Of a stretch of DNA of 64,000 nt, positions 33,453-47,471 are shown piece after piece (position 1 is the stretch's first letter; each line of letters opens with the position of its first letter). The notes under the pieces were generated by a model. The model searched no databases. It saw only the letters and a program-made list of their open reading frames with translations, and had not been told where the DNA came from. The position numbers and the translations under genes were made by a program. Source of the stretch: Gemmatimonadota bacterium (GTDB taxonomy: Bacteria > Gemmatimonadota > Gemmatimonadetes > Gemmatimonadales > GWC2-71-9); assembly GCA_003222155.1 (NCBI GenBank), contig QHUU01000067.1:38297-102296 (forward strand). The letters are read 5' to 3'.

Positions 33453-33827
33453 ATGGCTTCCCCCCTCTCCGGCGCGCCGCGCCGGGTGTTGTTCGTCGAG
33501 GACGAGTCGGCGCTGCGCCGTACCTACCAGCGGTACTTCTCCACGCGCTATGACGTAGCGTTCGCCGCGAGCGGCAGCGAGGCCCGCCGCCAGCTGGAGG
33601 ACTTCCGGCCGGAGGTGCTGGTGCTCGACCTGCGGCTCCCCGATACCGACGGGGTGACGCTGTTGCAGGAGATCCGCCAGTCCCGGCCCTCCCTCCCCGT
33701 GATCGTGACGACGTCCTACGTCAGCATGGAGCCGCTCATCCACGTGCTCGACCTGGGGCATTCGGGCTACCTGGTCAAGCCGTTCGACATGGAAGATCTC
33801 GCCGCGCGCATCGATGCTCTCGGCTGA
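33453..33827 (+). CDS. Single-domain response regulator
   Basis: VEDE; LVLDLRLPD; YLVKPF. Confidence 0.9.
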   Translation: MASPLSGAPRRVLFVEDESALRRTYQRYFSTRYDVAFAASGSEARRQLEDFRPEVLVLDLRLPDTDGVTLLQEIRQSRPSLPVIVTTSYVSMEPLIHVLDLGHSGYLVKPFDMEDLAARIDALG

Positions 33828-34494
33828 GGGGCTACGGCACGCCTACGGGCGCGTGGTCGCGCTCGACGGTGTGTCGCTCACGCTCGCACCGGGACAGACG
33901 CTCGCAATCTTCGGGCCCAATGGCGCGGGCAAGACCACGCTCCTCAAGGTGCTTGCGGGGTTGATCCGGCCGCAGCAGGGCTGGGCCCGCGTCGCCGGCG
34001 GGCGGCGCGCCATCGGCTGGATCGGTCACCAGTCTCATCTGTACGGCCACCTGAGCGTGCGGGAGAATCTCTTGTTCTGGGCCGCGCTGTATGGGGTGGC
34101 ATCAGTCCAGCGTGGCGGGCGCGCCACAGCTATCCTCGAGCGTCTCGGCCTCTCGGACCGGGCCGGGCAACCCGTCCGCTCGCTGTCCCGCGGCCTGGCG
34201 CAGCGGGCGGCGATCGCCAAGGCGTTGGTGCACGACCCCCCCGTGCTGCTGCTCGACGAGCCGTTCACGGGGCTCGATCTCGCCGCGGCGGCCCAGCTGC
34301 GGACCCTGCTGGGCGAGCTGCGCGGTGCGGGGCGAGTGGTGGTGCTGGCGACGCACAACGTCGACGAGGGTGTCGAGCTCGCCACGGACGTGGCGTTTCA
34401 GCGGCAGGGGCGGTTCGTGCAGCTGGCGCCGCGGGGGGCACGCGGCGCCGCGGAGATCGCCGAGGCGTACCGGCGAGCCGTGACGGATGCGTGA
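33814..34494 (+). CDS. ccmA: Heme exporter ATPase CcmA
   Basis: GPNGAGKTT; LSRG; LLLDEP; precedes ccmB. Confidence 0.88.
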   Translation: MLSAEGLRHAYGRVVALDGVSLTLAPGQTLAIFGPNGAGKTTLLKVLAGLIRPQQGWARVAGGRRAIGWIGHQSHLYGHLSVRENLLFWAALYGVASVQRGGRATAILERLGLSDRAGQPVRSLSRGLAQRAAIAKALVHDPPVLLLDEPFTGLDLAAAAQLRTLLGELRGAGRVVVLATHNVDEGVELATDVAFQRQGRFVQLAPRGARGAAEIAEAYRRAVTDA

Positions 34495-35167
34495 GCTGCT
34501 CGAGCAGGCGTGGACGGTGGCGCGCAAGGACCTGGTGCTCGAGTTCCGGACGCGCACGGCCCTGCTCTCGGCTGTGGTGTTCACGGCTCTCGTCCTGACG
34601 GTGTTCAATTTCGGGCGCGATCCGACGGCCGTCGCGACGATCGATCTCGCGCCCAGCATTCTCTGGGTCACCTTCACGTTCGCCGCCATGCTCGCGCTCA
34701 ATCGGGCGTTTCAGCTCGAGCTCGAGAACGGGGCGCTCGAAGGGTTGCTGGTCTCCCCGCTCTCGCGTCACAGTCTCTATCTCGGCAAGCTGCTCGCCAA
34801 TCTCGGATTCGTCGGGGTAGTGGAGGCCGTCGGGCTGCCGCTGTTCGTGCTGTTCTTCGACGTGCCCGTCGGCCCGGTCTTGTTTCCGCTGATCGCGGTG
34901 ATCGCCCTCGCCACCGTGGGATTCGTCTCGGTGGGGACGTTGTTCAGCGCGATGGTGGTGCGGACGCGCTTTGCGGAGCTGATGCTGCCGGTGCTGCTCT
35001 TGCCGTTTCTGCTGCTGCCGCTGACCTACGCCGTGCAGGCCACGGCCCGCCTCCTGGGCGGCCGTCCCTTGAGCGAGGTCTCGGGCTGGCTTAAGTTGCT
35101 CGCCGCATACGACCTGGTGTTTGTCGCAGTCGCGTTGCTGCTGTTTCCGCACACGGTGGACGAATGA
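34487..35167 (+). CDS. ccmB: Heme exporter CcmB
   Basis: KDLVLEFR; ELENGALEGL; LPVLLLP. Confidence 0.9.
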   Translation: MRELLEQAWTVARKDLVLEFRTRTALLSAVVFTALVLTVFNFGRDPTAVATIDLAPSILWVTFTFAAMLALNRAFQLELENGALEGLLVSPLSRHSLYLGKLLANLGFVGVVEAVGLPLFVLFFDVPVGPVLFPLIAVIALATVGFVSVGTLFSAMVVRTRFAELMLPVLLLPFLLLPLTYAVQATARLLGGRPLSEVSGWLKLLAAYDLVFVAVALLLFPHTVDE

Positions 35168-35829
35168 GTCTCGCACAGAAGGGGCGCCGGGTCGTGCTGT
35201 CCGGCTTGCTGCTGCTGGGCGGCGTGTATGTGCGGGCCCTGGCGTTCACGCCGGTCGAGCGGTTCCAGGGCCCCGCGCAGAAGATCTTCTACCTGCACGT
35301 TCCCGCCGCCGTGACCACGGAGCTGGCGGTGATCCTGGTTGGTCTCGCGGGCGTGTTCTTCCTGTTTCTGAAGGACCCCCGGCTCGACCGGTTCGCGGAG
35401 GCCTCGGCGGAGGTCGGCACGGTGTTCGCCGGGATCGTCCTGACGACGGGCCCGATCTGGGGGAAGCCCATCTGGGGCACGTGGTGGACCTGGGATGCCC
35501 GGCTCACCAGTACGCTGTTCCTGTTCTTCCTCTTGATCAGCTATCACGTGCTGCGGGGCGCGGTGACCGACGCGGGGCTGCGCGCGCGGTACGGCGCGGT
35601 GCTCGGGATCTGTGCGGTCGTGCTGGTCGGATTCATTCACCTGAGCGTGTATCTCTTTCCGACGCTGCACCCGCAGCCCATCGTGCTGCGACCAGGCAAG
35701 CCCGGCCTGCCGCCGGAGATGCTGGTCACGCTGCTGATGTCGTTCGGTGTGTTCCTCGTGCTCTACGTGGGCTTCGTGATGCAGCGCTACGCCATCGCTC
35801 TGCAGCGTGACGCGTCGGCACATGTCTGA
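35164..35829 (+). CDS. ccmC: Heme exporter CcmC
   Basis: YLHVP; WGKPIWGTWWTWDARLT; TLHP. Confidence 0.92.
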   Translation: MSLAQKGRRVVLSGLLLLGGVYVRALAFTPVERFQGPAQKIFYLHVPAAVTTELAVILVGLAGVFFLFLKDPRLDRFAEASAEVGTVFAGIVLTTGPIWGKPIWGTWWTWDARLTSTLFLFFLLISYHVLRGAVTDAGLRARYGAVLGICAVVLVGFIHLSVYLFPTLHPQPIVLRPGKPGLPPEMLVTLLMSFGVFLVLYVGFVMQRYAIALQRDASAHV

Positions 35830-35932
35830 GGTGCCGCAGAACGCTGGGTACCTCGTTGCCGCCTACATCATGGTGCCGGTGATCCTGCTGGCGTACGCCG
35901 TGTCGCTGTACCGGCGCAGCGCCAGGCCCTAA
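35822..35932 (+). CDS. ccmD: Heme exporter small subunit CcmD (36 aa)
   Basis: Manual translation MSEVPQNAGYLVAAYIMVPVILLAYAVSLYRRSARP; YL.AAY TM helix directly after ccmC. Confidence 0.7.
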   Translation: MSEVPQNAGYLVAAYIMVPVILLAYAVSLYRRSARP

Positions 35933-36513
35933 GCGTCACGCTTGTCGACGAACAGCTCGGCGCGGGCGTTGGACAGGCGCTCGAGCCCGTCAGGGACCTG
36001 CGTCGCCCACAGGTGCAGGGCCTCGTCCGCGGCGCGCAGGTCCCCCGCCTGGAACAGCGCTCCGGCGTTGAGCCACAACGCTTCGGCGCCGCCGCCGGCC
36101 GCATAGGCCCGGGCGAACCGGGCGGCCGCGTCGGCGTGCCGGCCGGCTCGGGCGTACAAGTCGCCGGCCGCGAGGGCGGCATCGGGGCGCTCCTCGAGAG
36201 TGAGCACCTGCTCGTAGGCCACCAGGGCATCGTGCGCGCGGAACACCATCTGAAACGCCTCCCCCAGGAGCATCCAGGCGTCGGGGTTTTCGGGGAACCG
36301 CTCGGCGGCGTCCTGCGCGGCGGCGACCGCGCCCCACCGGTCCTCGATGGCGCGCCGCAGGCGCACTAGCGCCGGGAAGCACTCGGTGAACGCGGGACTC
36401 ACGGTACAGCCCAACCGCAGCCACCAGTCGGCGCGCTTGGGCGCGTCCCGCTGGCTGGCGGCGGCTCGCCGCACGGTGAACCGCACGAGCGCGGAGCGCA
36501 GGGCCCGGAGCAT
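35929..36513 (-). CDS. TPR protein
   Basis: PENPDAWMLLGEA TPR helices. Confidence 0.7.
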   Translation of the reverse strand: MLRALRSALVRFTVRRAAASQRDAPKRADWWLRLGCTVSPAFTECFPALVRLRRAIEDRWGAVAAAQDAAERFPENPDAWMLLGEAFQMVFRAHDALVAYEQVLTLEERPDAALAAGDLYARAGRHADAAARFARAYAAGGGAEALWLNAGALFQAGDLRAADEALHLWATQVPDGLERLSNARAELFVDKRDA

Positions 36514-36555
36514 TGCTTGATAATGGTTTTAGGTCCCGAGAGATTGCAACCACGC

Positions 36556-37380
36556 ATGGCACCAGAGCCCCGTCGCCACGCCCGTCACCCCCTTGCGGGA
36601 AGGCGTATCGTCGTGACGCGCGCGCGCGAGCAGGCGAGCGAGCTGGCGCGGGCGCTCGAGGCGCTCGGCGCCGAGGTGCTGCCCGTGCCGACCATCCGCA
36701 TCGTGCCGCTCGCCGACCTCACCGCGTTGCGCACTGCGCTCACCGACGCCGCTGCGTATGACTGGATCGTCTTCACCAGTCAGAACACCGTCCACGTCGT
36801 GTGCGATCGGCTGCCCGAGTGGGGGCTCGCCGCGCGCGACCTGGCGCGGATGGCCGTGGCCGCCATCGGCCCGGCGACGGCACAGGCGCTGGAGCGATAC
36901 GGCGTCACGCCGGATGTCGTGCCGCCCAAGTACGTCGCGGAAGCGGTCGTGGCCGCGGTGGTCGCGCGCGGCGCGGTACAGGGCAAGCGCTTCCTGGTGC
37001 CTCGGGCGCGCGAGGCCCGCGATGCCCTGCCCGAGGGGCTCCGGGCGCGCGGCGCGGTCGTCGACGTCATTCCGGTCTACGAGACCGTCCGGGCCGCGGG
37101 GGACGGGAGCGCGCTCGCGGCGCAGATTCTCGGCGGCACGATCGACGTCGTCACGCTCACGTCGTCTTCCACCGTGCGGGGCTTCGTCGATCTGGTGGGG
37201 CGAGCGGCCGCGACGTCGAGTCGGTTCGCCGCCGCGGTGATCGGTCCCGTCACGGCCGCGAGCGCCCGCGAGCTGGGACTCCCGGTAGCGATCGAGGCGG
37301 AGGACTATACCGTCGGGGGGCTCGTGGCGGCCCTGGTCCGCTACTACGGGGAAGGGAAAGGGGGGAAGGGGGAAGGGTGA
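36556..37380 (+). CDS. hemD: Uroporphyrinogen-III synthase
   Basis: IVVTRAREQA; WIVFTSQN; AIGPATA; TSSST. Confidence 0.9.
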   Translation: MAPEPRRHARHPLAGRRIVVTRAREQASELARALEALGAEVLPVPTIRIVPLADLTALRTALTDAAAYDWIVFTSQNTVHVVCDRLPEWGLAARDLARMAVAAIGPATAQALERYGVTPDVVPPKYVAEAVVAAVVARGAVQGKRFLVPRAREARDALPEGLRARGAVVDVIPVYETVRAAGDGSALAAQILGGTIDVVTLTSSSTVRGFVDLVGRAAATSSRFAAAVIGPVTAASARELGLPVAIEAEDYTVGGLVAALVRYYGEGKGGKGEG

Positions 37381-38303
37381 GCGGCGCGCTGAAGCTCGGG
37401 ACTCGGGGGAGCAGGCTCGCCCTGTGGCAGGCCCAGTGGGTGCAGGCGGCCCTCGCCCGCCACGGCGTGCAAATCGAGCTCGTGGTCATCAAAACGCGGG
37501 GCGATGCGGAAGTCGACCGCCCGCTGCACGAGCTGGAAGGGAAGGGGTTCTTCACCAAGGAAGTCGAGGATGCGCTGCTCGCCGGGCATATCGACGCGGC
37601 GGTGCACTCGCTGAAAGACCTGCCGACGCGGCTCCCCGACGGTCTCGCGCTCGCGGCCGTACCCGCGCGCGCGGACCCGACGGAGGCGCTCGTGACCCGC
37701 GAGGCGGGCGTGGCGTCGATCGCCGGTCTGCCGGACGGTGCGAAGATCGGCACGTCGAGCCTGCGACGCGTGGCACAAGTGCGCTACCTCCGACCTGACC
37801 TCGAGATCGTCGCGCTACGCGGCAACGTGCCGACCCGCGTCCAGAAGGTGACGGAGGGCCGCGACGGGCTCGCTGCGGCGCTGCTCGCGGCGGCGGGGCT
37901 CGAGCGGCTCGAGCTGACCGGTCGGATCGCCGCGCGCGTCGATCCCCTGGTCGTGATGCCCGCACCCGGGCAGGGCGCCCTGGGTCTCGAGGTGCGGAGC
38001 GACGACCGTCGGACGCGGGTCGCGCTCGCGCCGCTCGAAGACGGGGAGAGCGCGCGCCACGTCGCCGCCGAGCGCAGCCTGCTCGCGACGCTGGAAGGCG
38101 GGTGCCAGGCTCCGGTCGCGGCGTACGTAGGGACTCGGGACTCGGGACTCGGGACCCGGTTGTTCGGGAGGGTCACGGCCCTCGATGGCTCCGTCCAGAT
38201 CACGGCTTCGGTCGAGATCGACGCCGGCGATCCCTCTGCCGCGGGCGTCGCGGTCGCGGGCTTGCTCCAGGGGCAGGGTGCGTCGAGATTGCTCGCGCGA
38301 TGA
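37377..38303 (+). CDS. hemC: Porphobilinogen deaminase
   Basis: [33 protein letters not shown]. Confidence 0.95.
38130..38157 (+). repeat. Heptamer tandem repeat inside hemC
   Basis: (GGGACTC)x3 + GGGACCC. Confidence 0.8.
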
Positions 38304-39271
38304 GCCAGTTCCCGATCCGCCGGATGCGGCGGCTGCGTCGCACGCCCGCGCTGCGCCGGCTCGTGCAGGAGACGCACCTCGTCCCCTCGCAGCTCGTGTG
38401 GCCCCTGTTCGCGTGCCACGGCAGCGGCGTGCGGCGCGAGGTGGCCCTCCTCCCGGGCGTGTACCAAACGTCCGTGGACGAGCTGGTCAAGGACGCGGAG
38501 CGGGCGCACCGGCTCGGCCTCGGCGGGATCATTCTCTTCGGCCTGCCGGCGGCGAAGGACGCCACCGGGTCCGAGGCATACGACGAGCAGGGCATCGTCC
38601 AGCAGGCGGCGCGCGCCGTGAAGCGGGCGGTCCCGGACCTGCTCGTGATCGGGGACGTGTGCCTCTGCGAGTACACCGACCACGGACACTGTGGCGTGAT
38701 TCAGGACGGCGACGTGGACAACGACGCGTCGGTGTATCTGCTCGGTAAGGTCGCGGTGACCCAGGCGCGCGCGGGGATCGACGTGGTGGCGCCGAGCGAC
38801 ATGATGGACGGCCGGGTGGCGGGGATCCGCAAGGCGCTCGACGCGGCCAAGCTGTCGCATGTCCCGATCATGTCGTACGCGGCGAAAACGGCGTCGGCGT
38901 TCTACGGCCCGTTCCGCGAAGCCGCCGGGTCCACGCCGCAGTTCGGCGACCGCCAGTCGTACCAGATGCCGGGCGGCAACGCCGACGAAGCGATGAAGGA
39001 GATCCGGCTCGACGTCGAGGAAGGCGCGGACATCATACTGGTGAAGCCCGCGCTGCCCTGCCTGGACCTGGTGCGCCGGGCCAAGCAGGAGTTCGGCTCC
39101 CCGCTCGCGGCGTATCAGGTGAGCGGGGAGTACGCGATGATCAAGGCCGCAGCCGCGCGCGGCATGCTGGACGAGACGCGCGCCATGTGGGAGACGCTGT
39201 ACGCCATCCGGCGCGCGGGCGCCGACATCATCCTCAGCTACTTCGCGCCGACCGTCGCCGAATTGCTCTAG
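38300..39271 (+). CDS. hemB: Porphobilinogen synthase
   Basis: [35 protein letters not shown]. Confidence 0.95.
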
Positions 39272-39951
39272 CGGCGCGGCAGCAGCACCGCCTTCCACAG
39301 CGCCGCGGCCACGCCGGCACCGATCAGCGGGCCGATCCAGTACACCGCATGGGCGTTCCACTGCCATGCGACCAGCGCCGGCCCGATGGCGCGTGCGGGG
39401 TTCATGACCGCGCCTGTGAAGTTCCCGCCGACCAGGGCGTCCACGAAAATGGCGAGGCCGATGCCGAAGCCCCCGATCTTGGGCGCCTCCGGCGACACCG
39501 CGGTGCCGAACACGGCGCTCACGAGGAAGAACGTGAGCGCCGCTTCGATCCACACGCCCTGCAGGAACGTGACGTCGTTGCCGAGCCGCGGCGTGCCCAC
39601 CAGCGCGAGGCCGACCGCCATGCGGGGCAGCACCGTTCTCACGAGCGCCGCGCCCACGACCGCGCCCGCCACCTGGGCGCCGATGTATTGCCACGCGACG
39701 CGGCCGCCGATGCGGTTCGCGATCCACAGGCCGAACGTGACCGCGGGATTGATGTGGCCGCCGGAGATGCTCATCGTCATCGAGACGATGATCGCCATGG
39801 CGACGCCGTGCGCCAGGGCGACGCCGAGCGAGCCGATGCTGCTGGCGGTGGTCCCGGCGGCGACCAGCGCCACGACGCTGCCGGCGCCGAGAAACACGAA
39901 CAGCAGAGTGCCGACGAATTCGGCCGCGAGCGGCCGCAGCTGCTTGGGCAT
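39268..39951 (-). CDS. Aquaporin/MIP channel
   Basis: [14 protein letters not shown]. Confidence 0.92.
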
Positions 39952-39992
39952 GAGAAGATCCTCGGGGTTGGAGGAGAATCCGGGAGGCACGA

Positions 39993-41237
39993 CTACGTCC
40001 GCCGCAGCACGAGCGACGCGTTGATCCCGCCGAAGCCGAACGAGTTGGTGAGCACGATGTCGGGCGCCGCCGCGCGGCCCTCGCGCGGCAGGCAATCCAG
40101 GTCGCAGGCGGGGTCGGGGCGCTCGAGGTTGATGGTGGGTGGGAGCCAGCGACGGTCCACCGCCAGGGCGCAGATCGCCGCCTCGATGGCGCCGCTCGCG
40201 CCGAGGGCGTGCCCGTAGTACCCCTTGGTGCCGCTGACGCTGAGGCGGTAGGCATGCGCGCCGAACACCTGCTTGATGGCGGCAGTCTCGGTCGAGTCGT
40301 TGAGCGGCGTCGAGGAGCCGTGCGCGTTGATGTACCCGACCTCGGCTGGCGCGACGTGTGCGTCCGCGAGCGCGAGCCGCATCGCCCGGGCCGCCTCGCG
40401 GCCGTCGGGGCGGGGCGCGGTCATGTGATAGGCGTCGTTGGTGAACGCGTAGCCGGCGAGCTCGGCGTAGATCCGGGCGCCCCGCGCCACGGCGCGGCCC
40501 CGCTCCTCCAGCACCAGGACCGCGGCGCCCTCCCCCATGACGAAGCCGTCCCGATCTTCGTCGAACGGCCGCGAGGCGTGTGCCGGGTCGTCGTTGCGGG
40601 TGCTCATCGCGCGGATCACGCTGAAGGCCGCGTACGTCATGGGCGCGAGCGGCGCCTCCGCCCCACCGGCCAGCATCACGTCGGCGCGGGCCTCGCGGAT
40701 CGCGTGGAAGGCCTCTCCCACGGCGATGGTCCCCGACGCGCAGCTCATCGCGTTGGTCGAGTTCGGGCCGGTGACCCCAAACTCGATCGCGATGTTGCAG
40801 CTCGCGGCCCCGGGGAACACGGCGAGGGCGAGCGCGGGATCGAGCCCGCGCGGGCCCTCGGCGCGGAACCGCTCGATCTGGGACTCCGCGAACGCCACGC
40901 CCCCGAGCGCCGAGCCCATCATGGCGCCCACCCGGTCCGCACGCTCGCGCCCGGGATCGAGCTCCGCGTCGGCGAGCGCAAACCGGGCGCTCGTCACCGC
41001 CAGCTGTGAAAACCGGTCGAGCCGCTTGGCGCGCTTGGCGTCGAGGTGGTCCTGCGGCCGGAAATCGGGGATTTCGGCGGCGATCCTCGAGCGGTAGGGC
41101 GTCGGATCGAAGCGGGTGATCTCGCGCACCGCGGACGTGCGCGCCGTGAGTCCGGCCCACAACCCCTCCGCTCCCGTGCCGATCGGCGTCACCGCGCCGA
41201 CTCCGGTGATCACCACCCGCCGCGCTCCATTCTTCAC
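39993..41237 (-). CDS. Beta-ketoacyl synthase (FabF-like)
   Basis: RVVITG; MSCASG (Cys); NAHGSST and GHALGA (His-His); NSFGFGG. Confidence 0.92.
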   Translation of the reverse strand: MKNGARRVVITGVGAVTPIGTGAEGLWAGLTARTSAVREITRFDPTPYRSRIAAEIPDFRPQDHLDAKRAKRLDRFSQLAVTSARFALADAELDPGRERADRVGAMMGSALGGVAFAESQIERFRAEGPRGLDPALALAVFPGAASCNIAIEFGVTGPNSTNAMSCASGTIAVGEAFHAIREARADVMLAGGAEAPLAPMTYAAFSVIRAMSTRNDDPAHASRPFDEDRDGFVMGEGAAVLVLEERGRAVARGARIYAELAGYAFTNDAYHMTAPRPDGREAARAMRLALADAHVAPAEVGYINAHGSSTPLNDSTETAAIKQVFGAHAYRLSVSGTKGYYGHALGASGAIEAAICALAVDRRWLPPTINLERPDPACDLDCLPREGRAAAPDIVLTNSFGFGGINASLVLRRT

Positions 41238-41695
41238 GACTGAGCCTCCTCCGCAAATCGTTTGAGTCCCGCGAGCGTGCGCGCGGCGATGCCGTGCACG
41301 AACACGGGCCCGATCACGAGGCGCGCCACGAGCCCGCCGACGAGCGGCCAGGGCGGTCCCCCCCACCGATGTACCACGGTCACCTGCACGCCGTCCGCGC
41401 CGGGCGCGAGCCGCCACACCACGTCCATGCCGCGCGTGATACCCCGGACGTGCCGGTAGCGGATTTCGGCCGCGGGCCGATCCACGGTCATCTGCGACAT
41501 CCACCACGCGGGATAGCGCAGCGGGCCGAAGGGGCGCACCGCCGCCATCTCGACGAGGCCGCCGCCGTTGCGGCGCTCCAGGAAACGGACCCGGCGGTAG
41601 TGCGGCAGGATTTGGGGCCAGCGTTCGATGTCGGCCGCGAGCTCCAGAACGCGATCGTTCGGCGCACGGATGACGATTCGGTCGACGGTATGCAT
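41234..41695 (-). CDS. SRPBCC/START polyketide cyclase-like protein
   Basis: ADIERWPQILPH; IRYRHVRG; MDVVWRL. Confidence 0.8.
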   Translation of the reverse strand: MHTVDRIVIRAPNDRVLELAADIERWPQILPHYRRVRFLERRNGGGLVEMAAVRPFGPLRYPAWWMSQMTVDRPAAEIRYRHVRGITRGMDVVWRLAPGADGVQVTVVHRWGGPPWPLVGGLVARLVIGPVFVHGIAARTLAGLKRFAEEAQS

Positions 41696-41697
41696 GG

Positions 41698-42393
41698 CTA
41701 TGATGCCTTCGGTGCCCATGCCGCCACGACCCGGAACCCGGGCCGATACCGCGCCACCGCCGGCACTCCCGCCTCCTCCAGCATCGCGTTGAACTCTCCT
41801 CGCGTGTAGCCCCGCCTGAGCGACACGACCGCGTCGCGCCGCGTCACGCGGTCCATACGCAAACCGAGACACGCCGCCCACACGCCGGCCATCGCGACGC
41901 GTGAGCGGCGCAGATCCGCGAGCACCACCACGCGCCGTGCCAGCCGGTCGCAGGCGCGGATCCAGCGCACCGCCGCCGTGCGCGACAGGTGATGCAGCAC
42001 CTGGCTCACCGTCACAACGTCCACCGACTTCGGAGCGAGCGGCGGGGCGTTGCCGTCGGCGATCACCACCGCCACGCCGCTTCGCTGCGCCAGGCGTGCT
42101 GCGGCCGGGATTACTTCGACACCGATCGGCGTCAGCGTGATCCCGTGCCGTGCCGCTGCGGCGACCGCGGCGCGGGGGATGTCGCCGGCCCCCGTCCCGA
42201 TGTCGAGTAGCGTCCACCGCGCATCCCGCATCCCGCATCTCGCGTCCCGCGCGGCGCGGAACACGCCGTCTAGAGCGTCGACGACGGCCTTCGTCCCTCC
42301 GAAAAGCGCATTGAGTCGTGCGATATCCCGCAGCTCCCTCCCGACCGCGATCGGATCGGCTCGGCGATCATCCAGCAGCTCGCTCTCGATCAT
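41698..42393 (-). CDS. SAM-dependent methyltransferase
   Basis: ELLDD; LLDIGTGAGD; VLHHL; DLRR. Confidence 0.85.
   Translation of the reverse strand: MIESELLDDRRADPIAVGRELRDIARLNALFGGTKAVVDALDGVFRAARDARCGMRDARWTLLDIGTGAGDIPRAAVAAAARHGITLTPIGVEVIPAAARLAQRSGVAVVIADGNAPPLAPKSVDVVTVSQVLHHLSRTAAVRWIRACDRLARRVVVLADLRRSRVAMAGVWAACLGLRMDRVTRRDAVVSLRRGYTRGEFNAMLEEAGVPAVARYRPGFRVVAAWAPKAS
42221..42250. repeat. Heptamer tandem repeat inside the methyltransferase
   Basis: GCATCCC GCATCCC GCATCTC GCGTCCC. Confidence 0.75.
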
Positions 42394-42887
42394 CGACCGC
42401 CCCCGCCCCCGCCCCCCAGACCGACGTAGCCACCGCGGTAGTACAGCAGCGGCCGTCCGTCGGACACGGTGCCTCCCGTGACCAGGCCGAAGAACACGGT
42501 GTGATCCCCACCCGGTGCCTCCGCCTGCTTCTCGCATTCGATGCTCGCGAGCACGCCTTCGAGCACCGGCAGGCCGAGCCGCGTTTCGCGGTAACCGATG
42601 CCGTCGAAGCGGTTCGGATGGTCCTCGGCAAACCGTCGGGAGATCGCCTCCTGATCGGCGGCGAGCACGTTGAGCACGAAGCGATCCGCCGCCTTGAGCG
42701 CCGGGTGCATGTCGTTGTCATGGGCGACCGACACGAGCACGAGCGGCGGATCGAGTGAAACCGACGCCACGGAGCTCGCCGTCATCCCGATCGGTTTGCC
42801 CGACCGGTCGCGCGTGGTGACCACCGTGACGCCGGTCGCGAACCGGCCGAGCAGCTGGCGGAACTGCGAGGGGTCGACGCCGTGCAT
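42390..42887 (-). CDS. Flavin reductase (HpaC/RutF-like)
   Basis: FATGVTVVT; SVSLDPPL; GDHTVFFG; PLLYYRG. Confidence 0.9.
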   Translation of the reverse strand: MHGVDPSQFRQLLGRFATGVTVVTTRDRSGKPIGMTASSVASVSLDPPLVLVSVAHDNDMHPALKAADRFVLNVLAADQEAISRRFAEDHPNRFDGIGYRETRLGLPVLEGVLASIECEKQAEAPGGDHTVFFGLVTGGTVSDGRPLLYYRGGYVGLGGGGGGGR

Positions 42888-42889
42888 GG

Positions 42890-44122
42890 TCACCAGAGCA
42901 GTCGGGCGAGAACGCGCGGAGTAAGGACGCGGCGCGCCGGCAAGAGATTTCCAGTCACGCTGACTAGAAGATCCGCGAGGTCGGGGCGTCGCGCCAGGCG
43001 GGCCACCACGCGGTCGGTGAGGGCGGGAGACCCGACGCCGAGCCCGATCAGACGCTCGAGCAGCCATTTCCCCCGCAATGCGCGGCGGCGCGCGCGCTCA
43101 TAGGATTGGAGAGATGTGGTCGCGCTGACCCCGGGCGCAAGCCCGTGGGTGAGACAGGCCGCCGCCAGCTCGGCGCCGCGCAGCGCGGTGTGGATCCCCT
43201 GGCCGGTGAACGGATCGAAGAAATCCGCGGCGTCTCCCACCAGCAGCGCGCCGGGCACCGCGGCGACCCTCGCCCATTGGGCGAAGGGACCCGTGGCGAG
43301 CACTGCGCGGACCTGGCGGCGCGGGTCGAACCGCCCCGCGAGTCCCGGGAACCGGTCCAGCTCCGCAAAGAATTCCGCGCGGTAATCCCGCCTGCTCCGC
43401 CGCACGTCGCGGAGCGGCAGCACGAGCGCCACCGTGGTGATCCCGCCGCCTACGGCCCCGAGCCCGACGTACCCGCGGTCGCTCACGTGCAGCTCCCCGA
43501 TCTCGTCCACGCCGGCGACGTCCGCCACGTGCGCGGTGAAGGCGACTCGGCGCGGCGGCGAGTGGCGCACGAGGCCGAGCCTGCGGGCGACTACCGAGCG
43601 CAGCCCATCGGCACCCACCACAAAACGGCCGTGACACGTGACACGTTGCCCGTTACACGAGCGTGCGACGACGCCGGCGACACGCCCGTCCTGCCACACC
43701 AGGTTCTCTACCGTTACGGACTCGCGGACCTCAGCCCCCGCCCGCGCCGCGGCGGCGACGAGGATCGCGTCGAACGAGGTCCGCGGCACCGCGAGGCTGT
43801 AGGGTCGGGACGCGCCGCGGAACCGGCCGATCATCGCGGTCCCGCCCGGCGCGACGACCTTCATGCCGTACAGCTTGGCGTGCGTGGTGCGCTCGACCGC
43901 TCCGAGCAGACCTGCGCCCAGGCGCTCCAGCACGTCGGTCGTCGCGGGGCTCAAGTACTCCGAGCATGGCTTGTCGCGGGGGAAGCGGGAGCGATCGAGC
44001 AGCAACACCGACGCGCCGGCGCGGGCGAGCAGCAACGCCGTCGTGGCTCCCGCCGGGCCGGCGCCGACGACGACCGCATCCCAGATCAGTGGGAACCCAC
44101 GAGCGCGACCGCGGCTCCGCAC
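42890..44122 (-). CDS. FAD-dependent oxidoreductase (geranylgeranyl reductase-like); start uncertain
   Basis: VVGAGPAG; FPRDKPC; GADG; LVGDAA..DPFTGQGI. Confidence 0.85.
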   Translation of the reverse strand: MRSRGRARGFPLIWDAVVVGAGPAGATTALLLARAGASVLLLDRSRFPRDKPCSEYLSPATTDVLERLGAGLLGAVERTTHAKLYGMKVVAPGGTAMIGRFRGASRPYSLAVPRTSFDAILVAAAARAGAEVRESVTVENLVWQDGRVAGVVARSCNGQRVTCHGRFVVGADGLRSVVARRLGLVRHSPPRRVAFTAHVADVAGVDEIGELHVSDRGYVGLGAVGGGITTVALVLPLRDVRRSRRDYRAEFFAELDRFPGLAGRFDPRRQVRAVLATGPFAQWARVAAVPGALLVGDAADFFDPFTGQGIHTALRGAELAAACLTHGLAPGVSATTSLQSYERARRRALRGKWLLERLIGLGVGSPALTDRVVARLARRPDLADLLVSVTGNLLPARRVLTPRVLARLLW

Positions 44123-44760
44123 AATGTGGCGGCCAGGTTGACACCGTCGTTGTCCAGCCAGCGCCACCCTCCGGTCAGGATGACCAGTTCGTGGCAGACG
44201 GTATTCGCGCGCTCGAAGCGCGCGTCGCACGCGGGACACTGGTATTTGCCCTGGAGTGTTGCGCCCAGCAGCGAGTCCGCCAGCATGCCCGCGACACCGG
44301 CGCCCGTCACGGTGGCCAACCCCGGAGCGGCGCACCGGGGTCCCAACACGTGGGCGAGCCAGGCGATCGTCGCCGCCCCGGCCACGCCGCCCAGCGTTCC
44401 CAGCGCCGTGATCCCCCCGGACGTGCCGCGGGTCACGCGCCGTCCCGACGTGATGAGGCGAGGAGGGAAGGGGGAGAATGCGCCGATCTCGGTCGCCCAC
44501 GTGTCGGCGGCGGCCGCGGCGATTGCGCCGGCCGCCGCCGCCCACGCGCCGAACAGCGCCGCGACCGCGGCCACGCCGCCGTTGGCCAGCACCTGTCGTG
44601 CGGTGCGGTGAGGACCCTGCCGCTCGGCCAGTTGGGAGAGGACGCTACCGGAGAGAAAGAAGGCGGCCAGCAGCGCCAGCCCGCCCCAGCCGAGGCCCCA
44701 CGTCGTGCCGGCCCCCACCGCGCAGGCCGCGACCAGCCCGCCGCGGGTGAGCCATCTCAC
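44086..44760 (-). CDS. DUF92 (TMEM19/VTE6-like) membrane protein
   Basis: QVLANGG; ADTWATEIG; GTSGGIT; DSLLGATLQ; LDNDGVN. Confidence 0.88.
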   Translation of the reverse strand: MRWLTRGGLVAACAVGAGTTWGLGWGGLALLAAFFLSGSVLSQLAERQGPHRTARQVLANGGVAAVAALFGAWAAAAGAIAAAAADTWATEIGAFSPFPPRLITSGRRVTRGTSGGITALGTLGGVAGAATIAWLAHVLGPRCAAPGLATVTGAGVAGMLADSLLGATLQGKYQCPACDARFERANTVCHELVILTGGWRWLDNDGVNLAATLCGAAVALVGSH

Positions 44761-44981
44761 TCGTCGAGCAGCTCGTCCAGTATGCGGCGGCGCAAGTCGG
44801 GAGACGCGCCATGAGCCCGGCAGCGCGCCCGCACGAACGTGAGGAACACTTTTTCGAAATCGAAATTCTCACCACACGGGGGACATTCCGCGATGTGCTG
44901 CCGGATCTCCTCCGCCACCGCGGGCGTGAGCTCTCGGTCGAGGTACTCGTAGAGGTGTTCTTTGCATTCCCGACAGTTCAT
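44757..44981 (-). CDS. Zinc-binding anti-sigma factor (RsrA/zf-HC2 type)
   Basis: C...YLDREL...HIAECPPC; soluble. Confidence 0.9.
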
Positions 44982-45610
44982 GTCGCGTTTCCCTTGATGT
45001 ACCCCATCCCGACCGCGTACTCGTACAGCTTCTGCTGCAGCAGGCGCCGGGCACGGAACAGCCGCGACTTCACCGTGCCGACCGGCACTTCCAGAATGCG
45101 GGCGATCTCCTCATACGACATCCCCTCCACGTCGCTCAACACCACCGTCTCACGGAATTGTTCCGGGAGCGCGTCGATGGCGCGGAGGACTTCGTCGTCG
45201 ACGATGCGGTCGAAGAAGGTCCCCTGCGGGTCGTCGTCCTGGATCTCCTCGAACACCGAAAAGGGCTCGATCGCGTCGATGTCCACCGTCTCGGGGTGGC
45301 GCGTGCGCCGGCGGTATTCATTAATGAAAGCGTGCCGCAGGATGGTCAGCAGCCAGCCCTTGGCGTTCGTGCCCTTCTCGAACTGGTGCCAGGCGCGGTA
45401 CGCCTTGAGCATGGTCTCCTGGACCAGGTCATCGGCTTCGGCGGGATTGCCGGTGAGCCGCAGCGCGACCCGGTACAGGCTGTCGAGATGGATCAGCGCC
45501 TCGCGCTCGAAGCTCGCCCGCTTCTCGGCCTCGGCCGCGGGGCTGGGGGCGGCCGGAGGCGGCGGGGGGGACGAGGGGGGCGGGGAGCCGGGGGGGAGCG
45601 GAGGCGTCAT
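44978..45610 (-). CDS. ECF sigma factor (SigR/SigH-like)
   Basis: [34 protein letters not shown]. Confidence 0.92.
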
Positions 45611-45681
45611 GGCGTGCCGTAACCTCTCCCCGTGCGGCCGGGTTCCGCAATGGGGTAGGGGCGTGCTACGTTTCGCGCGCC

Positions 45682-46287
45682 GTGGTCCACAGCATCGTCC
45701 CGCTCGCCGTCCTGGAGGCGGTCAAGAACCTCGACACGCCGGTCGAGGACGGGCTGTCGGAGTTCGCCGAAGAGCTCTTGTCCAAGCGACTCGGCCTCTC
45801 GAACACGGTGGCGATGCAGCTGCGCGAGTACGAGGGGATGGTGCGGCGCGACGCCGCCGCCGATCAGGCGCACGTCGAGGCGCTGTTGCGGCTGGTGGGG
45901 CGCCGCCCCGACGCCGACCTGGTGTTCGCCGATGCGGGTCGCCGGGCCGCCCGCCGGGCGGTGCGGCGTCTGTTCGGGCTCACGCGCCTGGCCGCCCGCG
46001 GCGCGCCGCGGTTGTTCGGGTACGCGGCCGCGCGTCGGGCGGCGCGCGCCGTGTTCGCGGCCGAGCTGCGGCGGGAGCGACACGTCCCCATCGCCCACGT
46101 GCGCGACGCCGTCGCCGTGCACGCGACCCCGGACGGGGCGGCCTGCGCCTTGTACGGCACCGGGTTCACCGAGCTGCTCCGCCTCCTGGTCGGATTCGAG
46201 GGGGCGATGCTCCACGTCTCGTGCCGCGCGACCGGCGGGACGGTGTGCGAATGGCGGGCCGCCCCACCGGATCCACGTCACCACTGA
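45682..46287 (+). CDS. Hypothetical protein with a V4R-like C-terminus
   Basis: ACALYG...[11 protein letters not shown]. Confidence 0.55.
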
Positions 46288-47471
46288 TGCCTCCGTTGCT
46301 CGACGGCTTCGATTTCGCGGCGCTCGCGGACGCACTCGCCGCGCTCGGCGCCGACGGCTGGCTCGTGTACGACTTCCGCAAAGTGAACCCGATCGCCGAG
46401 CGGATCCTCGGGCCGACCGGGATGGGAACGCGGCGCCTGTTCGTGCTGCTGCCCCGGGCCGGGCGTCCCATCGCCGTGGCCCATCGCATCGAGCTCCAGC
46501 CGCTCGCCGACTTTCCGGGCGAGGTGCGGCCCTACGGGTCGTGGCGCGAGCTGCACGGCCACCTCGGCACGCTGGTGCGCGGCCGCACCCTCGCCCTCGA
46601 GATCTCGCCGCTGGACCAGGTGCCGTACCTGGATCGCGTACCGCACGGCGTGGTGCAGCTGCTCGAGTCGTTCGGGGCCCGGCTGGTGTCGTCCGCACCG
46701 CTCGTGTCGCGCTTCGCGGCGCGCTGGTCGGCGGGCGAGCTCGCGGGTCACCGCAGCGCCGCGGAAGCGCTCGCGGGTATCGCGCGCGACGCGTTGTCGT
46801 GGACGGGCAGTGAAGCGGCGCGCGGTGCCGAGGTGCGCGAGACGGGCGTGCAGGCGCGCGTGCGCGAGGCGATCGAGCGGGCTGGTCTGTGGACCAACGA
46901 GGGCCCCATTGTGGCGTTCGGGCCCACGAGCGCCATGCCGCACTACGAGCCGCACGCGGGGGCGGACCGGCGGCTCGCACCGGGCGACGTCGTGCTGCTC
47001 GACCTGTGGGCGGGTCCGGGGCGCGGGTCGGTGTTCGCGGATCAGACGTGGATGGGGTTCGCGGGGCGGGCTCCCGACGCGGAGGTCCGTCGGGTGTGGC
47101 ATGCGGTCAAGGCGGCGCGCGAGGCCGCCGTGCGGTACCTGCGGGAGCACTGGCGTCCGGACGGCGTCGTGACGGGAGCGCAGGTGGACGACGCGGCGCG
47201 CGGCGTGATCCGCGAGGCGGGGCTGGGCGACTACTTCGTGCACCGCACCGGGCATTCGATCGACCGTGATCTGCACGGCTCGGGGCCGCACATCGACAAC
47301 TTCGAGACCGAGGACGCGCGAGCACTGGTGCCGGGCGTCGGGTTTTCGGTCGAGCCGGGCGTCTACCTGCCGGAGCGGTTCGGGATGCGCAGCGAGATCA
47401 ACGTCTACATCGACACGACCGGCCCCGAAGTGAATCCGCGCACGCCCCAGCACGAGCTGTTTCTGCTCTGA
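46287..47471 (+). CDS. M24 family (Xaa-Pro) aminopeptidase
   Basis: PHY; LLDLW; ADQTW; HRTGHSI; SVEPGVY; RSE. Confidence 0.9.
   Translation: MPPLLDGFDFAALADALAALGADGWLVYDFRKVNPIAERILGPTGMGTRRLFVLLPRAGRPIAVAHRIELQPLADFPGEVRPYGSWRELHGHLGTLVRGRTLALEISPLDQVPYLDRVPHGVVQLLESFGARLVSSAPLVSRFAARWSAGELAGHRSAAEALAGIARDALSWTGSEAARGAEVRETGVQARVREAIERAGLWTNEGPIVAFGPTSAMPHYEPHAGADRRLAPGDVVLLDLWAGPGRGSVFADQTWMGFAGRAPDAEVRRVWHAVKAAREAAVRYLREHWRPDGVVTGAQVDDAARGVIREAGLGDYFVHRTGHSIDRDLHGSGPHIDNFETEDARALVPGVGFSVEPGVYLPERFGMRSEINVYIDTTGPEVNPRTPQHELFLL

Follow-up and report, generated by a model that had tools for sequence, protein, structure and literature searches.

A Gemmatimonadota genome carries, within the 64,000-nucleotide stretch of contig QHUU01000067.1 analyzed here (the window), a nine-gene operon whose conserved part is a cassette of four genes for a methyltransferase, a flavoenzyme, a START-domain protein and a ketosynthase (KS). 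This cassette is real, widespread and undescribed in the literature searched; our searches, which took in listings and the openings of abstracts, turned up no description of it. We put at roughly 0.5 the probability that its products form an aromatic polyketide synthase (PKS) that operates without a chain-length factor (CLF), borrows the acyl carrier protein (ACP) of fatty acid synthesis, and would make a methylated, hydroxylated alkylresorcinol-type lipid. A first-pass annotation of the window had proposed that the KS and START proteins take the place of a type III PKS (T3PKS). This proposal gained support, since the same methyltransferase and flavoenzyme families flank T3PKSs, and methyltransferase-flavoenzyme-T3PKS arrangements occur in relatives.

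A four-gene core shared across phyla

The conserved unit is the methyltransferase, flavoenzyme, START and KS genes, and the nine-gene operon is a lineage-specific assembly around this core. A START match is present in 199 of 301 Gemmatimonadota genomes, mostly as a single copy, a count that takes in G000, G157 and a few weak matches. Among 40 regions fetched from this phylum, START and KS genes are adjacent in all 40, a flavoenzyme gene is found in 40 and a methyltransferase gene in 37. The accessory genes of these regions are a flavin reductase (34, two of them about 6-9 kb off on the opposite strand), DUF92 (30) and an aquaporin (29). Five further regions yielded the START-KS pair in four, two of which have no tailoring genes nearby, and START alone in the fifth (G113).

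Beyond this phylum, a scan that used distant START sequences gave at least 600 matching stretches, of which the best 80 were analyzed. Many of these lie on short contigs; a KS gene follows START in 79 of them, with a flavoenzyme in 72 and a methyltransferase in 61. The names among the best 80 are mostly Chloroflexota/Thermomicrobia, and also include Eremiobacterota/Vulcanimicrobiota, Armatimonadetes, Eisenbacteria, Rubrobacteraceae, Nitrospinota and others. Gene order there is methyltransferase, flavoenzyme, START, KS, compared with flavoenzyme, flavin reductase, methyltransferase, START, KS in the window. Because none of the best 80 loci gave a match to DUF92, the flavin reductase or the anti-sigma factor, the unit is taken to be four genes to which the remainder was added in one lineage. 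The synteny check that had been suggested for the operon thus found conserved order, with START and KS adjacent both in the home phylum and beyond it. In one further intact cassette, the START protein belongs to a 90% cluster with Paenibacillus catalpae among its members, and START homologues 59-61% identical to that of the window fall in clusters with members named Gemmatimonadota or Gemmatimonadales.

No CLF was called in the 40 own-phylum and 79 other-phylum loci, where one KS gene follows START. A tblastn search with the AcpP of the window's own genome (E<1e-5) gave no ACP match in 120 loci (L033-L152), although a very divergent ACP could escape it. Within the 64-kb window, a codon-model caller returned no ACP, CLF or FabG gene, as the first reading of the neighborhood had it. 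PF00550 (ACP) had no match on the window's contig, nor did tblastn with the nine operon proteins find a second KS there.

Several variants of the cassette were encountered. The methyltransferase was not found in genus g3 (0 of 8 genomes; for example, L039 and L045) or in L042, where START-KS and the flavoenzyme are kept, and these appear to be natural unmethylated variants for comparison. In L218 (G113:C23), START stands without KS or tailoring genes, and no operon-type KS was found in this 2.0-Mb, 95% complete genome. At L065, L069 and L105, a gene for a B12-binding radical S-adenosylmethionine (SAM) protein lies just upstream of the flavoenzyme or START gene.

A ketosynthase clade apart from housekeeping FabF

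The separate fabF that the first-pass annotation had advised looking for lies on contig C110 of the same genome, in a plsX-fabH-fabD-fabG-acpP-fabF cluster. Its product and the operon KS are 48.5% identical; contig C92 encodes a third KS. The explanation that the operon KS is the only FabF of its genome was therefore rejected. Two FabF-like matches occur in 10 of 12 own-phylum genomes, and three or four in the other two. Directly after the housekeeping fabF (L001:10986-14151, G000 C110) are genes that we take to be futalosine-pathway-like mqnE, mqnA and mqnC.

Operon KSs from at least five phyla form one clade in every tree (support 99-100; 100/99 in a 32-row mixture-model tree), and a topology holding the operon KS with FabF of its own phylum was rejected by the approximately unbiased (AU) test (p-AU 0.035). 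The enzyme is neither the sole FabF of its genome nor a member of a housekeeping clade, and its gene order is conserved; the first-pass annotation had staked its proposal on these points. A position beside KS-alpha and CLF is suggested with moderate, taxon-dependent support. In the 32-row tree, which omits 14 rows of a 46-row set, including the long rows L223 and L224 and the Bacillus CLF, the split that separates FabF from KS-alpha/CLF places the operon KS with the latter (95/93). In a 79-row LG+G4 tree it is sister to KS-alpha plus CLF (67/93), and in a tree with the long rows and without CLF its placement is unsupported either way. Row L224 fell among PKS-side rows in a quick tree, and a grouping of KS-alpha with CLF that leaves out the operon KS was not rejected (p 0.458). 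The trees are unrooted, and the affinity to KS-alpha/CLF depends on rooting at FabF, which was chosen because the literature derives KS-alpha and CLF by duplication from a FabF-like ancestor (PMC10132072, PMC13685256).

The residues C166, H306, K338 and H343 are kept in 106 of 106 operon KSs, which bears out the earlier reading of an intact Cys-His-His set and adds the lysine. Signature columns form a mosaic: five are common with KS-alpha, five with FabF and sixteen are unique. Those common with FabF include its gate (D268-N406 and P275), with D268 and P275 present in all 106 sequences. The acyl pocket, by contrast with that of E. coli FabF (G107, I108, V134, I138 and A162), is remodeled to A110, L111, A137, F141 and S165 without exception in the 106. 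A basic residue occupies the E. coli K65 position, which we take to be an ACP contact, as in FabF and CLF and unlike KS-alpha. The T305S change of polyketone KSs is found in 99 of 106. No Asp is present near the (approximate) position of D113 of polyene KSs, a residue that blocks β-ketoacyl reloading, and a FabF is capable of triketide lactone formation in vitro (PMC9006962).

The START protein and the tailoring enzymes

A profile of 52 START sequences first matched BexL, WhiE-ORFVI, TcmN, ZhuI and StfQ, and 10 of its first 11 matches are type II PKS cyclases. A search with the predicted fold of P0035, a relative 44% identical to the window's START protein (predicted local distance difference test score, pLDDT, 91.8), agrees with the aromatase/cyclases and also returns lipid- and plant-hormone-binding proteins. 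Relative to a WhiE-ORFVI-type sequence, the protein keeps W28, Y35, W65, M91 and W95 of the TcmN/WhiE pocket. The positions of E34, R82 and Q110 are occupied by H32, H82 and H109 in 126 of 126 sequences, although the H32 motif was partly built into the scan, and a pattern-free alignment gives H109 as invariant and H32 and H82 at 90% or more. Roles for these pocket residues, and the finding that R69 and W108 are essential in TcmN, come from a preprint (bioRxiv 10.64898/2026.02.27.708631). Overall, the pattern fits an enzyme pocket that would perform a different ring chemistry.

The methyltransferase has an intact SAM motif (DxGTG), and no solved structure matching it was found. A hidden Markov model (HMM) of 96 cassette methyltransferases matches three T3PKS-linked methyltransferases (E 1e-46 to 1e-51). 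Five plasmid homologues exist, and all four that were fetched adjoin a T3PKS. Similarly, the motifs KxCxE[YF]xS and GY[VAC]GL are common to the cassette flavoenzyme and two T3PKS-linked flavoenzymes, and the assignment of the flavoenzyme to the T3PKS-linked kind rests on these motifs rather than on HMM scores. Taken with the own-phylum gene regions described below, these data agree with the first-pass statement that this methyltransferase type and a flavin adenine dinucleotide (FAD) oxidoreductase accompany T3PKSs. The description of the flavoenzyme as geranylgeranyl reductase (GGR)-like survives as a family label, just under the TIGR02032 cut-off (152.9 vs 158.8), and goes no further. What we take to be the GGR motif, YxWxFP, is found in 0 of 102 family members. 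A role as a flavin-dependent halogenase was rejected because WxWxIP, presumably the halogenase motif, is likewise present in 0 of 102.

Among the accessory proteins, DUF92 ends in a CxxC...C/H motif (window 44250-44190), possibly zinc-binding, that is kept in 27 of 30 called operon DUF92 proteins. We assume the link of this family to the phytyl-phosphate kinase VTE6 that the first-pass annotation had drawn; a literature search turned up no mention of "DUF92" among the papers it listed.

Possible exchange with type III PKS cassettes

A T3PKS match was obtained in 23 of the 301 Gemmatimonadota genomes; a START match is lacking in 20 of the 23. Seventeen of the 23 T3PKS regions were fetched; six are methyltransferase-flavoenzyme-T3PKS clusters, all in START-negative genomes. 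Within a single genus (g30), G126 and G147 carry such a cluster without the operon KS, and G148, G190 and G197 carry START-KS. No T3PKS was found in the operon or elsewhere in the window's genome, which is 95% complete.

Alkylresorcinol operons of planctomycetes and cyanobacteria run methyltransferase, oxidoreductase, T3PKS (PMC10896814). Alkylresorcinols and one probable C-methylation resulted from the planctomycete genes; that work left the role of the oxidoreductase open (PMC10896814). In the cyanobacterial case, HidA methylated pentadecylresorcinol and HidB is a proposed hydroxylase (PMC6836626, PMC8086630). The T3PKS counterparts take long acyl starters (PMC10896814, PMC6836626, PMC8086630), and resorcinol clusters without an ACP have a precedent in brt (PMC6836626).

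Other combinations of these families were also noted. L207:5260-12207 (G442) holds KS-alpha, CLF and a cassette-family flavoenzyme (434 bits). A cassette-family methyltransferase (230 bits), UbiA and a metallo-hydrolase-like gene diverge from these; judged from its sequence, the tailoring pair of the cassette here accompanies a third type of synthase. On Novosphingobium plasmid pLA3 (L228:1-4169), an operon of ACP, FabF/B-like KS, T3PKS and FAD monooxygenase genes is divergent from a member of the same methyltransferase family. Six KS-alpha/CLF pairs from the phylum of G303 (L208-L213, in G469, G460, G538, G397, G602 and G496) showed no ACP match in the fetched 8-18 kb. Four have an unannotated gene of ~300 amino acids just upstream, two have an FAD monooxygenase downstream, and they apparently represent ACP-less type II PKSs in their own clade.

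Proposed pathway and alternatives

We propose that the KS, presumably a homodimer like FabF, would load an acyl chain from the fatty acid ACP encoded by acpP in the fab operon on C110 and add about three malonyl-ACP units without reduction. Given its FabF gate, the enzyme would free the ACP-bound intermediate in each cycle, and a short chain would therefore be favored. START might then take the ACP-bound tetraketide and close one ring by a C2-C7 aldol reaction to form an alkylresorcylate or alkylresorcinol. This ring would then receive a methyl group from the methyltransferase and a hydroxyl group from the flavoenzyme, as proposed for HidA and HidB, to give a methylated membrane lipid of the alkyl-hydroquinone or quinone type. 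In Gemmatimonadota the flavin reductase may supply reduced flavin, and a SigR/RsrA-type pair, which leads the operon in the window's family, may add thiol-stress induction there.

Several observations weigh against this pathway. The KS passes the fabF model TIGR03150 (524 > 493.75); the first-pass label "FabF-type" undersells this enzyme, which forms a separate deep clade. By raw similarity in the PDB the KS is nearer FabF than KS-alpha (428 vs 336 bits), its family HMM scores FabF at about 440-523 and KS-alpha at 382-434 bits, and the top 41 matches of its fold search are FabF-type entries. An AU test did not reject a place beside core FabF (p-AU 0.905 vs the quick tree). The FabF-type gate marks KSs that release product each cycle, and polyketone KSs have no D265 and carry Leu for the loop-2 Pro (PMC9006962). 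The operon KS keeps both the pair D265-N404 (FabF numbering) and this Pro, and therefore does not seem built to hold a reactive poly-β-keto chain. Furthermore, START does not have the R69 and W108 of TcmN. The flavoenzyme-family HMM scores T3PKS-linked enzymes at 137-176 bits, not above unrelated Streptomyces flavoenzymes linked to nonribosomal peptide synthetases (206), and the best solved relatives of the flavoenzyme are halogenases and a geranylgeranyl reductase. The methyltransferase is missing from 3 of the 40 own-phylum regions. As for a strict swap with T3PKSs, 82 of 102 START-negative genomes have no T3PKS match either, three genomes have both START and T3PKS (a methyltransferase adjoins the T3PKS in two), and kin are not independent in these counts.

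One alternative is non-aromatic lipid tailoring. Here the KS would carry out a single, special elongation of a fatty acyl-ACP, with START as a lipid carrier or dehydratase, a flavoenzyme that reduces a double bond and a methyltransferase that methylates the chain. The FabF-like gate, fold and scores of the KS, the missing R69 and W108, the geranylgeranyl reductase relatives of the flavoenzyme, and the binding of lipids and plant hormones by START folds are all compatible with such a role. We nevertheless regard it as unlikely: it leaves unexplained both the methyltransferase family beside T3PKSs and the START-negative relatives with methyltransferase-flavoenzyme-T3PKS clusters, and it fits poorly with the predominance of type II PKS cyclases among the START profile matches and with the absence of the presumed GGR motif from the flavoenzymes.

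Slightly less probable again is a short starter (acetyl or short acyl), with which the KS would build a small aromatic head such as orsellinate or orcinol that is later prenylated to a quinone- or tocopherol-like meroterpenoid. In place of G107, I108 and I138 the operon KSs have larger, invariant residues (A110, L111 and F141), and an I108F change limits FabF to C8 (PMC9006962). UbiA is in the operon in 3 of the 80 other-phylum loci and stands beside the KS-CLF-flavoenzyme cluster at L207, and DUF92 is in 30 of the 40 own-phylum regions. However, the other 77 loci have no UbiA nearby and none of the 80 has DUF92, whose bearing here depends on the link to VTE6 that we assume. The long acyl starters of the T3PKS counterparts also speak against this alternative.

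It is improbable that the cassette is a degenerate type II PKS, in which a KS-alpha without its former CLF would now produce a larger polycyclic polyketide or pigment. The operon KS joins KS-alpha in one tree (the 32-row tree, at 71/24), shares five signature columns with it and has a TcmN-type cyclase as partner. However, five other columns, the gate among them, are common with FabF, KS-alpha is monophyletic without the operon KS in three trees (95-99), no second cyclase or ketoreductase is in the cassette, and R69 is absent from START. Weakest of all, and very improbable, is a DarAB-like reaction, with head-to-head joining of two acyl chains by the KS and aromatization of the cyclohexanedione to a dialkylresorcinol by START. 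An ACP-less KS plus aromatase is the layout of brt and related clusters, but DarB is a distinct KS class that lost elongation (PMC6836626). The operon KS retains both the gate and the complete Cys-His-Lys-His set for elongation, and it falls among FabF and KS-alpha in a tree without a DarB row.

Returning to the CLF-free aromatic synthase, a bolder version can be offered tentatively, as possible but doubtful. The cassette might be a living form of the ancestral type II aromatic PKS from before the KS-alpha/CLF duplication. Its homodimeric KS, branching just outside KS-alpha/CLF, would use the fatty acid ACP and, together with a cyclase of the TcmN type, produce a phenolic lipid with one ring. 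Most of a major soil phylum would then have this pathway in its core metabolism; at least six other phyla would contain it, and it would be interchangeable with T3PKS cassettes.

Operon organization and regulation

Open reading frames and codon-model gene calls agree on nine minus-strand genes, and the order and tight joining described by the first-pass annotation are confirmed by the junctions and by family scans, which agree with the labels of all nine proteins (Table 1). ATGA overlaps join sigma to anti-sigma and flavin reductase to methyltransferase, and GTGA overlaps join anti-sigma to DUF92 and START to KS. The methyltransferase and START genes are separated by 2 nucleotides (nt), and KS and the aquaporin ATG (39951) by 41 nt. 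No ATG lies near the flavoenzyme start; CTG 44089, also present in the relative G213, would give the usual 4-nt overlap with DUF92 (CTGA), and GTG 44122 would give one of 37 nt. Between flavoenzyme and flavin reductase there is either a 2-nt gap to ATG 42887 or a GTGA overlap with a start at 42893.

Table 1. Features of the operon, from its putative promoter to its last gene (positions in the window)
Feature	Position	Strand	Basis or remark
SigR/SigH-type promoter match GGAAC-N18-GTT, putative	45621..45646	-	Ends 10 nt before sigma start
Extracytoplasmic function (ECF) sigma factor, SigH/SigR-like; accessory, family-limited	44978..45610	-	TIGR02947 best match 175 bits, below cut-off 251.55
RsrA-type zinc anti-sigma factor, HxxxCxxC	44757..44981	-	TIGR03988 64.7 bits > cut-off 62.5; PF13490
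DUF92 membrane protein, C-terminal CxxC...C/H motif; accessory	44086..44760	-	PF01940, E 9e-53
Flavoenzyme of T3PKS-linked (HidB-like) kind; core; start probably CTG 44089 or GTG 44122	42890..44089	-	PF01494
Flavin reductase; accessory	42390..42887	-	PF01613, E 4e-46
SAM methyltransferase, PRK06202-like; core	41698..42393	-	NF004851 121 bits, below cut-off 243
START/SRPBCC protein related to type II PKS aromatase/cyclases; core	41234..41695	-	PF10604, PF03364
Stand-alone elongating KS, distinct clade; core	39993..41237	-	Catalytic residues, tree, TIGR03150
Aquaporin/MIP channel; accessory	39268..39951	-	PF00230

The zinc anti-sigma factor recognized in the first reading is borne out by its motif, H29-x3-C33-x2-C36, which is kept in relatives, and by its pass of TIGR03988. 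Control by oxidative stress, proposed at the same time, finds no support as a general property, since a sigma/anti-sigma pair at the operon's head is confined to the window's family: the sigma gene is in the operon at 16 of 20 loci of this family versus 0 of 20 of other families. In five of five genomes whose operon has no sigma gene, sigma homologues are encoded elsewhere. The strict motif GGAAC-N18-GTT, which we take to be the SigR/SigH-type consensus, occurs in only one of 16 other sigma-headed loci, a second reason to doubt such general control. In the window it fits a putative promoter for autoregulation and a near-leaderless transcript, and thiol-stress induction of this particular operon is plausible.

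Other regulatory candidates were set aside. A genome-wide SigR-type regulon was judged unproven: several thiol-related genes match the motif, yet forward matches (21) show no enrichment over reverse ones (18) at spacer 18. A scan for the sigma-70 consensus found no promoter. Among 16 sigma-headed loci, eight have a TTGC-type element and eight a relaxed ECF motif (controls: 21 and 9 of 310, respectively); neither was counted, because both patterns had been picked with the data in view and they overlap among close kin.

Plus-strand genes that we take to be ccmA/B/C-like and hemD-hemC-hemB-like (window 33814-39271) converge on the 3' end of the operon. Two genes diverge from it (45682-47471, plus strand), one weakly V4R-like and the other for an M24 peptidase; they are found in this orientation in 34 and 33 own-phylum loci, respectively, with sigma present or absent.

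Significance and comparison with known systems

If the proposed chemistry is correct, the cassette would provide a third route to alkylresorcinol-type rings, besides T3PKSs and DarAB, and a common one, given START matches in 199 of 301 sampled own-phylum genomes (a few of them weak). It would also be a two-protein system of KS and cyclase on a host ACP, easily tested in E. coli, and it would allow the origin of KS-alpha/CLF by duplication of a homodimeric FabF-like enzyme to be tested on a natural enzyme. Genome-mining catalogues of KS-CLF pairs require the pair within 2 kb (PMC10132072). Such catalogues cannot list the cassette for this reason and miss it, and annotation names its KS FabF.

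Several known systems resemble parts of the operon. Housekeeping FabF has the fold, catalytic residues, gate and TIGR03150 pass of the operon KS, which differs as a second copy beyond a complete fab operon, with its own cross-phylum clade and invariant pocket changes. SigR-RsrA and SigH-RshA are thiol switches, and the window's pair is like them in its best sigma match (TIGR02947), its TIGR03988 pass and the promoter-like match upstream; it is unlike them in that the link to the cassette is confined to one family. DarAB, BrtCD and StlCD likewise combine a KS with an aromatase, often without an ACP, but DarB belongs to a non-elongating KS class, whereas the residue set here is an elongating one (PMC6836626); DarA and DarB are set apart here by their description in that source.

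The closest parallels are two. Cyanobacterial hidABC (hierridin) and planctomycete mtr-fdo-t3pks are alike in methyltransferase family, flavoenzyme motifs, the want of a dedicated ACP and, outside the window's lineage, the order methyltransferase-flavoenzyme-synthase. They are unlike in that an elongating thiolase-fold KS (Cys-His-His) plus START stand for the T3PKS, and the likeness to HidA and HidB is by family and description, not sequence. Type II aromatic PKSs provide the nearest solved relatives of START, a possible place for the KS beside KS-alpha/CLF (moderate support in three trees) and the T305S change, but the cassette has one KS, no CLF, no ACP, a FabF gate, and a START protein without R69 and W108 of TcmN. 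The cassette falls outside both type II PKSs, by its missing CLF and ACP and its FabF gate, and hidABC, by its missing T3PKS, and likely works like a hybrid of the two.

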